From the NCBI RefSeq assembly GCF_003334385.1, contig NZ_QOWN01000001.1: a stretch of 64,000 nucleotides of DNA; one strand, given 5' to 3'. The position numbers are program-made. Shown in pieces: positions 1-3,000 of the stretch (positions are counted from its first letter, which is position 1; each line of letters opens with the position of its first letter). This DNA comes from Escherichia coli (GTDB lineage Bacteria > Pseudomonadota > Gammaproteobacteria > Enterobacterales > Enterobacteriaceae).

Positions 1-3000
1 TACTTCAGCCAGGAACGATCAGAAAAAGAGACTATACAGGCTCTGAATCATCTGCGCAGGGTACTTCATGAAGTCAGCCCTTTTGCACAGGAGCCTGTGG
101 ACTGTGTGCTGTGGGTGAAAGCAGATGAGGTGGTGGCCAACGATTATAACCCCAATGTCATGGCGCCGGGTGAGAAGAAACTGCTGAAGCAGTCACTGGA
201 GAAAGATGGTTTCACCCAACCCGTGGTGGTGTCGGCGGAGAAGAACCCCTATCTGGTGGTGGATGGTTTTCATCGTCAGTTACTGGGCAGGGAAGCAGGT
301 ACAGGAAAACGCCTGAAAGGCTGGTTGCCAGTGGCCTGTATTAATCCGGAAAGAAAGGGACAGGCCACACGTATGGCGGCCACCATACGGCATAACCGGG
401 CCAGGGGTAAACACCAGATAACCTCAATGTCTGATATTGTCAGGGACCTGTCACGCCTGGGCTGGACGGATGAACGCATTGGTACAGAGCCTGGGGATGG
501 ACCAGGATGAAGTGCTGAGGCTGAAACAGATTAGCGGACTGACGGAGTTGTTTCAGGAAGAGGATTTCAGCCCGGCATGGACGGTTCGCTGAGACCGTCA
601 TATATGAGTATTATTTCAGTGAGTTGATGTTTTGAGCAGGAAAAATAGTACCCCGGAAGTCGTGGAAGACATGGTTGCACAGAAGCTGGAGGCGGCGGGT
701 TGCTGGCGCAGAGCTTCTGCCCGCTGGCTTTTTGTTATGGGAAATGTTGAATGTACAGAAGCACAACGGGAGTGGTTGTTGTTGCGCCGGAATTATTGTC
801 TGGCGCAGATATCGTCCCCGCCGCTACCTGAAAAGCTGGATATCAGCGAAGTGGCGAAAGCTGCAGATGCCACGCTGAGGCGAATGGGGATTGCCAGCCC
901 GTCCGGGGAGATATTCAGAAAAGGTACACCGGTCTGTTGATATTCAGGTAACAGGTATTAATGATGAAGAAAGATATGGCGGACAGTGTGTCAATGACAT
1001 GGCAACTTTTATGCGATGAACATGGTTTTACCCGGGAGCACTACAATCAGCTGAAGAAGTTCAGCCCGGAGACATTACGTGAAATTATTGCTGAAATAGC
1101 CAGCTGTCATCCATCAACCAGTGTATTGCTCAGGAATAAGTGGCTGACACCGCCGGAGGATATTCTGGAGCAGATTACCCGTGAATACGAACGAAGAATA
1201 CAAAACTGTCCATCGTTCAGGAGCGAGAAGGAAGCGGAATCCTGGTTAAATGAACTGTCTTTTGCTGTGATTGCTCCGCTATACCGTGTTGTCCCCGAAC
1301 AAACAGAACAGGTTGAGTCCTTTGTTCTGCAGCTTATTGCCGAGCAGGAGCGGGTTTGGGAGCTTATTTTAACCAATGATGGTTATTCATGGCATTGCGC
1401 ACTTTATGATATATTATTTCATCTGGTTTTACGAAATATGGAAGACCAGCCTGAACATCAGAGACAGCGAATAACAAAAATACTTAATGAGTCCGATACA
1501 AGACGGGTGGCAGAAGAGATTAAATTCCGGATTCAATATCTTCAGGATGAAGAACAAAAGAGAGTTTTAAGTGATCTGGTAAATGTCCTGATTTCAAAAA
1601 GATAAAACATGCCGGAGTAATTTTTCTATATGTTAATAAAACAGGTGCGTATTACCATGAAGAAGATCGGTGAGTAACCGTTATTGGATGATCTCCTTCC
1701 ATAAAAATACGCGCAATCTAACGGTTCGCTCTGTGCCAAAAAAAGATATTGCTCACAATATCAAGTTAATCATTCGGCCGTTGAACATTTCCATTGAAAA
1801 ATTTCTCAGTATAGAATATACCAATGTTGAGGGCATTCCTCTTACATCTCGAAGGATAACTATCATGGGTCTTAAACCAGGTCCAAAACCAATTGCTAAG
1901 TCGGTAGGAAAACCGGATCAACGCCGACGCGATAATAAAGATACTCCTGGCAATACTCCGGGACTAAAGCCAAGTAAGTCCACAGGTAAGTAAAAAAATA
2001 AGGGTATAAACAAGCATTTATACACTGACTATATATCCAGTCCACTGAAGGTGTTTCAGCAACCAGATGCTCGTTCTTTCTATATCATACGCCTTTGCCC
2101 CGTACCCTTTCGCAAGCAAAGACTCTGGTAAATACTCGTCATATTTATCCAGATCCTTATCAGGAACAACTGCAGCAAGCTCAAATTCTGAAGGTGCAAA
2201 ATGGCATCTGAATCGATCACGACCTGGCATGAGCGAGAGAAGAGGCCAGTGATACAAGGCGTCGTGTACTACGCGGATCATCGAGACGGGCATGTCCAAA
2301 CTGCTCGTTAGCCCATGAATAACAATCAGAAAGTACCATAACAGAGTCGAATAAAATGAAATATAAGAGAAGATCAACGGGTGAAGAAAAAGTTCAAAAA
2401 ATGGCTACCGGGGAGGAAGGAAAGTACCGGATGGAAAGAGCCCCCCCTAAAGCAGACTGACAGACATCACAAATCCCCGGGTGGGGACTTGTGTATAAGA
2501 GACAGGTCTTACAGGGGGAGCGTCCGTCTTTTTATCAACATCAGGCAATGACATAACATTATGAACAAGCGCACAAGTCTGATGGTTAAATTTTATAATG
2601 CTCCTTACTAAGACCGTATTTTTTCATTCTGAGATAGAGTTTTTTCCGTGGGATTTGTAAATATTCAGCAACCTCATTGATACGCCCCTGATGGATATTA
2701 AGCGCCTCTGTGATTATCTGTCGCTCAGCGTCCTCCACTCGTCTGTCAAGCGGTGTCGGGGTTCCGACGTGCATCAACGGATTTGCTGTTTCTGCCAGCG
2801 GTAATACTCCTACAGTAAATAGTTCTGCTGCATTGGCCAGCTCTCGCACATTATTTGGCCACATGCGGCGCATCATCTCTTTGAGCATCTCTTTTCCCAC
2901 TTCCGGAACAGGATGGTTAAGCCGTTGACATGCTTTACAAAGGTAATGGCGAAACAGTGGTTCAATATCGTCGGGGCGTTGAGTTAATGGCAGGCAAGCG

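Follow-up and report, generated by a model that had tools for sequence, protein, structure and literature searches.

A pchD-type PerC-family gene in an ibrA-ibrB cassette on a pap-bearing island of Escherichia coli

Introduction

What might a small PerC-family gene be doing on a genomic island that also carries the operon for P fimbriae? The question is raised by the open reading frame (ORF) at positions 632-940 of a 64,000-nucleotide stretch of Escherichia coli DNA (contig NZ_QOWN01000001.1, assembly GCF_003334385.1), the whole of which is referred to here as the window. An original prediction, made from the sequence alone, had seen in this ORF a PerC/Pch-like activator next to a ParB-like gene. 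The comparisons described below identify it as the orthologue of pchD, a gene of enterohaemorrhagic E. coli (EHEC), and lead us, with moderate confidence, to the view that it is the third gene of a mobile ibrA-ibrB-pchD-hyp3 cassette, encoding a small helical regulator that would act outside the enterocyte effacement locus (LEE) and tune the expression of acquired surface-structure genes. There is no doubt about which gene this is, but there is about how it works.

Identity of the gene

The product of the ORF matches the PerC family of Pfam (PF06069) over residues 11-100, which align with positions 2-89 of the 90-position model (E 5.9e-36, 123 bits), and a family profile built from PerC, PchA, PchD, PchE and YfdN recovers the PchD cluster at 6.5e-34. 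The reference genes used for comparison were those of PerC (plasmid pMAR2 of enteropathogenic E. coli, EPEC), PchA, PchD and PchE (O157 Sakai) and YfdN (K-12). The window protein is 96% identical to PchD, 36-40% to PchE, 24-26% to PerC and to PchA, and 23% to YfdN over the C-terminal part of the latter, and the PerC/Pch-like character assigned to the gene by the original prediction is thus borne out. An N-terminal core, A..LE..G.(W/Y)RRA..RW followed by R...RR..C, has all its residues invariant in a six-protein alignment including the window protein, and is nearly invariant over 87 members of the family. The size of the product (102 aa; 89 aa in RefSeq) and its setting, a selC island with an integrase, insertion sequence (IS) elements and pap, are those of a PerC-type gene, and this is the only PerC-family locus in the window. 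RefSeq labels it 'PerC family transcriptional regulator' (WP_000226516.1).

In Sakai, the order ibrA, ECs_1387 (ibrB-like), pchD (ECs_1388) and ECs_1389 (214 aa) is that of the window, as confirmed by phmmer, and the two sequences are 93.5% identical at the DNA level over 1.6 kb including the flanks. Because of the 96% protein identity and the conserved ibrA-ibrB-pchD-ECs1389 synteny, the gene is, on sequence comparison, the pchD orthologue: an extraintestinal, uropathogenic-type allele of a 'group 2' PerC/Pch member.

Three start codons can be considered: TTG 632 (102 aa), GTG 662 (92 aa) and ATG 671, the start used by RefSeq (89 aa). The stretch T-P/L-E-x-V-x-D, upstream of the RefSeq Met1, is conserved in homologues at 48-67% identity, and the Asp is invariant in the set of close homologues, in which no start codon was found at the position of ATG 671. 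The context of TTG 632, atttcagtgRgttRatgttTTGAGCAGG, is conserved in Sakai and in one homologue of 55% identity, where GGAG stands eight bases upstream. For these reasons TTG 632, the coordinate of the original prediction, is the best-supported start, and the RefSeq protein is probably 13 residues too short; constructs cloned from ATG 671 would miss those residues, including the invariant Asp. In pairwise comparisons with seven homologues, all informative pairs gave a dN/dS of 0.19-0.38, and 632-940 is therefore an intact protein-coding gene under purifying selection rather than a chance ORF.

An AlphaFold2 model of the product (pLDDT 85) predicts four helices with a hairpin resembling tetratricopeptide repeats and no helix-turn-helix, and no recognisable DNA-binding domain was found in this predicted fold. 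Searching the PDB by sequence gave no relatives, weak matches to ribosomal protein S3 (E ~0.1) being rejected as noise, and no NCBIfam model matched PchD or the hyp3 product at E <=0.01.

Published data on PchD and the PerC family

In MG1655 lacking yfdN, a ler::lacZ fusion yielded 1,620 ± 85 Miller units with PchD versus 1,577 ± 56 with the vector, whereas PchA, PchB and PchC raised it four- to eight-fold, to 7,800-12,500 units, in the same assay (PMC5931665). PchD also had no effect on curli-dependent dye binding or on the LEE, and its function 'remained elusive' (PMC6265319). Among the pch genes, those of group 1 alone are reported to be required for ler, for espA and for adherence (Iyoda & Watanabe 2004; Porter 2005; both as cited in PMC6265319). 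Stronger induction of pchD inhibits growth (PMC5931665), and the PchD protein is therefore active.

These data bear directly on the idea of a LEE-type virulence activator working like PerC or PchA/B/C. Membership of the Pfam family and the shared N-terminal motif speak for such an activator, but for the LEE it is already contradicted: the 96%-identical PchD does not activate ler::lacZ where PchA, PchB and PchC do (PMC5931665, PMC6265319), identity to PerC and PchA is low, and the LEE is absent from extraintestinal pathogenic E. coli (ExPEC) such as CFT073, as stated for uropathogenic lineages (PMC3378721). We give this idea practically no chance. The word 'activator' in the original prediction accordingly gains no support from the orthologue, which lacks any ler/LEE or curli effect (PMC5931665, PMC6265319). 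It is not a safe label for the family either, because EPEC PerC turns fim OFF, probably via Ler (PMC5293775), and a PerC homologue borne on a phage-inducible chromosomal island (PICI) represses LEE1 (PMC11773190). PchA lowers H-NS occupancy at LEE1, and it is for PchA only that binding to target DNA and displacement of H-NS/StpA have been shown (PMC4764244).

In two non-O157 Shiga toxin-producing E. coli (STEC) strains, ibrB, perC and hyp3, which have adjacent locus tags, were 2.4-7.6-fold up once the bacteria had spent 3 h on T84 and Caco-2 cells (PMC7649339, Table 4). The induced genes lie on the tellurite-adherence island at serX (PMC7649339), and their perC is assigned to the pchD type because this island is the equivalent of SpLE1.

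The ibrA-ibrB-pchD-hyp3 cassette

The gene 39 nt upstream of pchD is the ParB-like neighbour noted in the original prediction (Table 1). Its intact Sakai orthologue, ECs_1387, encodes a protein that matches phrog_2159, 'ParB-like partition protein', at 1.8e-82. Relative to that gene, the copy in the window carries a 1-bp insertion (an extra C) at ~490, as a result of which the shifted frame stops at 510, the normal stop being at 590-592. Only the ~31 last residues of IbrB are removed. RefSeq also flags the gene as frameshifted in CFT073 and UPEC132, among the annotations examined. The next gene upstream, ibrA, which encodes a PAPS-reductase and DUF3440 protein, is located immediately beyond the window's left end. 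IbrA gave weak matches to BrxP and DndC in PADLOC, and none of the cassette proteins belongs to a PADLOC-listed defence system.

Downstream, hyp3 follows pchD after 20 nt and is an orphan, found in Escherichia only; the possibility that it is a paralogue of the other 214-aa hypothetical gene, upstream of ibrA, was considered and rejected. After a further 64 nt comes an ORF of 107 codons, possibly the last gene of the transcription unit, whose product has a Pro/Lys-rich tail and no family matches; it is also found 3' of hyp3 in CFT073 and in a Collinsella-labelled contig that is probably E. coli contamination. In a consensus scan, the interval from the ibrB stop (592) to the start of pchD contained nothing resembling a promoter, and one weak 9/12 site was seen at 937-965, overlapping the pchD stop; no terminator-like site was found in the gaps of the cassette, and one weak hairpin lies inside hyp3. 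Such scans lend weak support only to an operon, but the short gaps, the lack of promoter- and terminator-like sites in them and the published co-induction together suggest that ibrB, pchD and hyp3 are on one transcript.

Over its first 2 kb the window is 100% identical to many ExPEC genomes (at least 15), including CFT073, S88, APEC O1 and the E. coli type strain, and the RefSeq annotation of CFT073-type matches gives the same order: a frameshifted IbrB-like gene, a PerC family regulator and two hypothetical genes. The order ibrA-ibrB-PerC is invariant over six diverged E. coli PerC alleles, with gaps of 32-69 nt. Across cassettes, IbrA and IbrB are 85-91% identical and the PerC alleles 61-68% identical, and on this comparison PerC is the fast-evolving part.

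The constancy of this order raises the alternative that PchD has no regulatory activity of its own and is an accessory subunit of an IbrA-IbrB machine acting on DNA or transcription, idle in this strain as ibrB is frameshifted. Such a machine, ParB-like and PAPS-reductase/DndC-like, would be in line with the weak BrxP and DndC matches of IbrA, with the co-induction of ibrB and perC (PMC7649339) and with the lack of phenotype of PchD expressed alone (PMC5931665, PMC6265319). It is also supported by a further, independent case in which a PerC domain and a PAPS-reductase-type protein are found together: YfdN-type PerC genes lie directly upstream of dam in SfV-like and Stx phages (K-12 yfdN-yfdM; L007, 8113-8882), and the dam gene of some phages is either fused to a PAPS reductase or annotated as one (phrog_33262). 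However, many genes of the PchD clade occur without ibrAB (in Salmonella, Klebsiella, Lelliottia, Mixta and Erwinia), PerC, PchA and PchE act without IbrAB, pchD is intact and almost unchanged where ibrB is frameshifted, and the frameshift costs IbrB very little of its length. The accessory-subunit idea is considered unlikely, but it is a serious rival and keeps an appreciable minority share of our belief.

Distribution and genomic company

Of 5426 complete E. coli genomes, 1099 carry pchD, almost all of them in one intact copy, the ORF being intact in ~1050. Carriers include ExPEC, O157, O26, O103, O111, O145, O104:H4 and enterotoxigenic E. coli (ETEC). Truncated variants are present in databases, and O157 lineage II lacks pchD as well as the adjacent genes ECs1383-1390 (PMC1890555). 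These last two observations, together with the adjacent ibrB pseudogene and the IS debris around the cassette, are what would be expected if pchD were a dispensable passenger or remnant, functionless in this strain. A dN/dS of ~0.2 over deep divergence, the intact ORF in so many genomes, induction upon host-cell adherence in STEC (PMC7649339) and the inhibition of growth upon overexpression (PMC5931665) argue against this, and a passenger appears very improbable.

The genes found around cassettes and related PerC genes were surveyed in a modest, non-random sample, a narrow-alignment locus search having given 12 loci. Five cassette loci, with PerC alleles 61-68% identical to that of the window, lie beside fimbrial operons. 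On plasmids from sheep isolates, the cassette adjoins Pap-like tip genes followed by a PapB/AraC pair, and on many IncF plasmids two alleles adjoin an usher, two chaperones, subunits and FaeA. Other cassettes lie beside K88-type fimbrial subunits, or between an F17 operon and a YadA-like trimeric autotransporter; one has a large autotransporter 2.5 kb away, and that of Sakai has an AidA-type adhesin 4 kb away. A frameshifted PerC remnant lies directly 3' of the CS5 csf operon on an ETEC plasmid (L047, 9001-9336).

Homologues without ibrAB keep similar company: one follows a Salmonella usher/AfaD operon, one (55% identity) lies between an autotransporter and a papI/papB-type pair, one follows an MrpH-type fimbrial operon and one, in Klebsiella grimontii, has a chaperone-usher operon on either side. 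At six loci, in Lelliottia, Mixta, Erwinia and two metagenomic bins, members at a greater distance (43-57% identity) come immediately after tssA/vasL, at the end of a type VI secretion system (T6SS) cluster. For other distant members the setting is an inverse autotransporter, defence genes, a prophage or core genes. These contexts provide circumstantial support, from gene neighbourhoods, for a role in the control of adhesin or other surface loci.

Two further observations were made on the plasmids and strains surveyed. T6SS gene fragments precede the cassette in two E. coli strains. On a Salmonella IncF plasmid (L049, 8956-10039), a PerC-family gene lies two genes upstream of hha, which encodes an H-NS co-repressor, an arrangement that is suggestive in that it fits the idea of anti-silencing.

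The island and its P fimbriae

The original prediction placed the gene on a pap-bearing island, and this is confirmed by a complete pap operon 12 kb from pchD and by tRNA-Sec (selC), the right-hand boundary of the island (Table 1). Positions 1-22.1 kb align with the PAI-pheU of CFT073 at 98.7%; it was considered whether the island is this one throughout, and this was rejected, since only these 22.1 kb match and selC is where the island lies here, as it does in UPEC132. UPEC132 and N50, which match best overall, carry the same segment next to tRNA-Sec, and an integrase adjoins the tRNA in the matching region of UPEC132. The CFT073 Pap proteins are 97-100% identical to the papI/papB region (tblastn), and the papI-papB intergenic region is AT-rich (32.8% GC in 13001-13500).

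Table 1. Coordinates of the features of the window discussed in the text
Feature	Position	Strand	Remarks
ibrB-like (ParB-like) pseudogene, 3' two-thirds	1..592	+	RefSeq 'IbrB-like domain-containing protein, frameshifted'
pchD-type (group 2) PerC-family gene	632..940	+	Intact ORF, TTG start, 102 aa; Pfam PF06069
hyp3 / ECs1389-like	961..1605	+	214 aa; fourth gene of the PchD-allele cassette
Low-GC (38%) ORF	1670..1993	+	107 aa; hypothetical WP_015953064.1 in CFT073
pgtA, pgtB, pgtC, pgtP	2586-8806		Complete Salmonella-type phosphoglycerate transport system
papI	12851-13081	-	tblastn with CFT073 Pap proteins
papB	13495-13806	+	tblastn with CFT073 Pap proteins; divergent from papI
papA, papH, papC, papD, papJ, papK, papE, papF, papG-II	14017..21952	+	tblastn; RefSeq of UPEC132/CFT073 regions; papG-II at 20945-21952
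tRNA-Sec (selC)	28028..28122	-	ARAGORN and Rfam RF01852, 83.8 bits; integration site, right-hand island boundary
JUMPstart element	56126-56164		Rfam RF01707, 55 bits; core region beyond selC

Between pchD and pap lie pgtABC-pgtP, IS3 debris and Gp2-type genes. In CFT073, the region upstream of that corresponding to the window (L001, 2121-6756), by the island integrase, contains an AAA gene that is disrupted, together with an ATP-dependent nuclease of the OLD family (PADLOC Old, 1.2e-47), interrupted by IS3. This stretch, outside the window, looks like a degraded defence locus adjacent to ibrA.

The proximity of pap invites the alternative that PchD is a dedicated P-fimbrial regulator, which might relieve H-NS at the papI-papB switch or bias pap phase variation. 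The location on the same island, the low GC content of the papI-papB intergenic region, the 55%-identical homologue directly beside a papI/papB-type pair, the cassettes abutting Pap-like and other fimbrial operons and the shift of fim phase variation by EPEC PerC, indirectly via Ler (PMC5293775), all point in this direction. Against it stand the rarity of the linkage among pchD-positive genomes (121 of ~1099, or ~11%), the 96%-identical EHEC copy in a genome without pap, and the pgt operon and IS remnants separating the cassette from pap. Direct control of pap by PchD in this island would be possible, but the idea is weakened by this low linkage and by the IS-mediated scrambling between the two loci, and it is judged quite unlikely that pchD encodes a dedicated pap regulator.

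A possible role in the control of acquired surface loci

The reading with which these observations agree best is that of a small regulator of acquired surface-structure genes, carried by a cassette that travels on tRNA-linked islands and plasmids. PchD, its gene probably co-transcribed with ibrB and hyp3, would be a protein of ~100 aa without a classical DNA-binding domain. It could disturb silencing complexes of the H-NS type, as PchA does, or alternatively bind other regulators in the manner of ANR proteins (AraC negative regulators), and so tune the expression of horizontally acquired surface-structure genes. Its most likely targets would be adhesin loci of the kind that recurrently flank the cassette, not the LEE; such targets are suggested because of the recurrent fimbrial and adhesin neighbours. 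Eib proteins are trimeric autotransporter adhesins. IbrAB are described as activators of the eib adhesin genes (Sandt 2002, as cited in PMC7649339).

The suggestion of ANR-like behaviour comes from a comparison with NCBIfam. The ANR model NF033650 is the best, and mostly the only, family match for 10 of 10 PerC-family proteins, including the window protein, PerC, PchA and PchE, the matches covering positions 8-53 of the 54-position model on the N-terminal PerC helices with E values of 4e-6 to 0.05. ANR proteins are described as making protein-protein contacts with AraC-type regulators and with H-NS, through which they act (PMC10148876, PMC5570504), and the resemblance between PerC and ANR proteins has also been remarked upon elsewhere (PMC11773190). 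The likeness of PchD to ANR proteins may best be taken as a remote resemblance, a lead and not membership.

Several observations weigh against a regulator of surface loci. All the PchD phenotypes that have been tested (ler::lacZ, curli and biofilm) were negative (PMC5931665, PMC6265319), and pchD itself, with a GC content of 50-54%, is not AT-rich. The low frequency of linkage to pap and the carriage of pchD by EHEC without pap, both given above, count here too. The cassette may be decaying in this lineage, because ibrB is frameshifted. Chaperone-usher or papI/papB-type genes lie within 10 kb of 9 of 10 close alleles (binomial tail 4e-6 at a generous 20% background), but this statistic is inflated, because adhesin genes abound on islands and plasmids and the contexts sampled lack independence. 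The ANR scores, 13.6-26.6 bits, are all below the NCBI cut-off of 32 bits, the window protein having the lowest (13.6 bits, E 0.046; relatives 17.9-26.6 bits) and thus falling short of membership, and the alignment of PerC alignments with the single sequence of Aar by hhalign was not significant (E 0.018-0.024, probability 2-3%).

A bolder version can be put forward, which we regard as speculative and rather unlikely to be right in full. The cassette would be a portable regulatory module travelling with adhesin loci, ancestrally with a T6SS, in which PerC, as an ANR-like adaptor that does not bind DNA, chooses the silenced surface locus, here pap; in that case, a regulator missing so far for the expression of P fimbriae and other adhesins in ExPEC and EHEC would have been found in PchD.

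As it stands, the finding is real but ordinary and adds little: the gene is annotated, its family is known, and its orthologue, which received its name in 2004, has given negative results in the studies made of it, its function being described in print as 'elusive'. The additions made here are modest, and consist of the start-codon correction, the pattern of cassettes beside fimbriae, the relatives at the ends of T6SS clusters and the ANR-like core. If PchD, alone or with IbrAB, does control adhesins, about a fifth of complete E. coli genomes would be concerned, including EHEC O157, O26, O104:H4 and the major ExPEC lineages, and the STEC orthologue is induced on contact with epithelial cells. 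To our knowledge, the trans-acting coordinators of several fimbrial or autotransporter loci are only partly known. The recurrent place of the cassette beside different fimbrial operons provides a concrete and cheap hypothesis, which makes the question of the function of PchD more testable.

Comparison with known systems

The PerC family as a whole is small (362 clusters at 50% identity in 1.8 billion representatives), and its named matches come from Enterobacteriaceae or their phages and plasmids. The closest known system is PchD of Sakai, which has the same length, the same flanking genes and the same TTG context, the ibrB-like gene there being annotated ybdM. It differs by 5 amino-acid changes over 102 aa, 4 of them within the 89-aa RefSeq span, and in its island: SpLE1, the tellurite-adherence island at serX, carries ter, ure, iha and the AidA-type adhesin, whereas the window gene is at selC (pheU in CFT073) with pap, pgt and ireA, and ibrB is frameshifted here and intact in Sakai.

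PerC of the EPEC pEAF perABC operon and PchA/B/C of EHEC prophages resemble the window protein in Pfam family, N-terminal motif, size, mobile carriage and predicted helical structure. However, apart from their low identity, their neighbours are perA/perB or a lambdoid prophage late region, and both activation of LEE1/ler and displacement of H-NS are on record for them (PMC4764244), in contrast to the absence of ler activation by the PchD orthologue (PMC5931665). PchE (ECs_1588) and the other PerC proteins of PICI or P4-like elements are somewhat closer (36-40% identity), and PchE, like PchD, has little effect on the LEE (PMC6265319), but PchE lies in an integrase-AlpA-primase-SSB-PerC element and represses curli and flagella. 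YfdN, from K-12 CPS-53 and SfV-like phages, shares the PerC motif but is 164 aa long, with a 100-residue N-terminal domain and only the N-terminal half of the PerC domain, and its gene lies between phage replication genes and dam.

An identity of 71%, over 80 aligned columns, is seen with LdaB (UniProt Q49JF3), which takes its name from the 'locus for diffuse adherence'. The plasmid PerC genes that follow fimbrial operons keep the ibrA-ibrB-PerC order and abut K88-type, Pap-like and F17 operons, but lack hyp3. The ANR proteins, of which Aar of enteroaggregative E. coli is an example, are likewise small helical regulators found on virulence plasmids; PerC proteins differ from them in being 30-40 residues longer.

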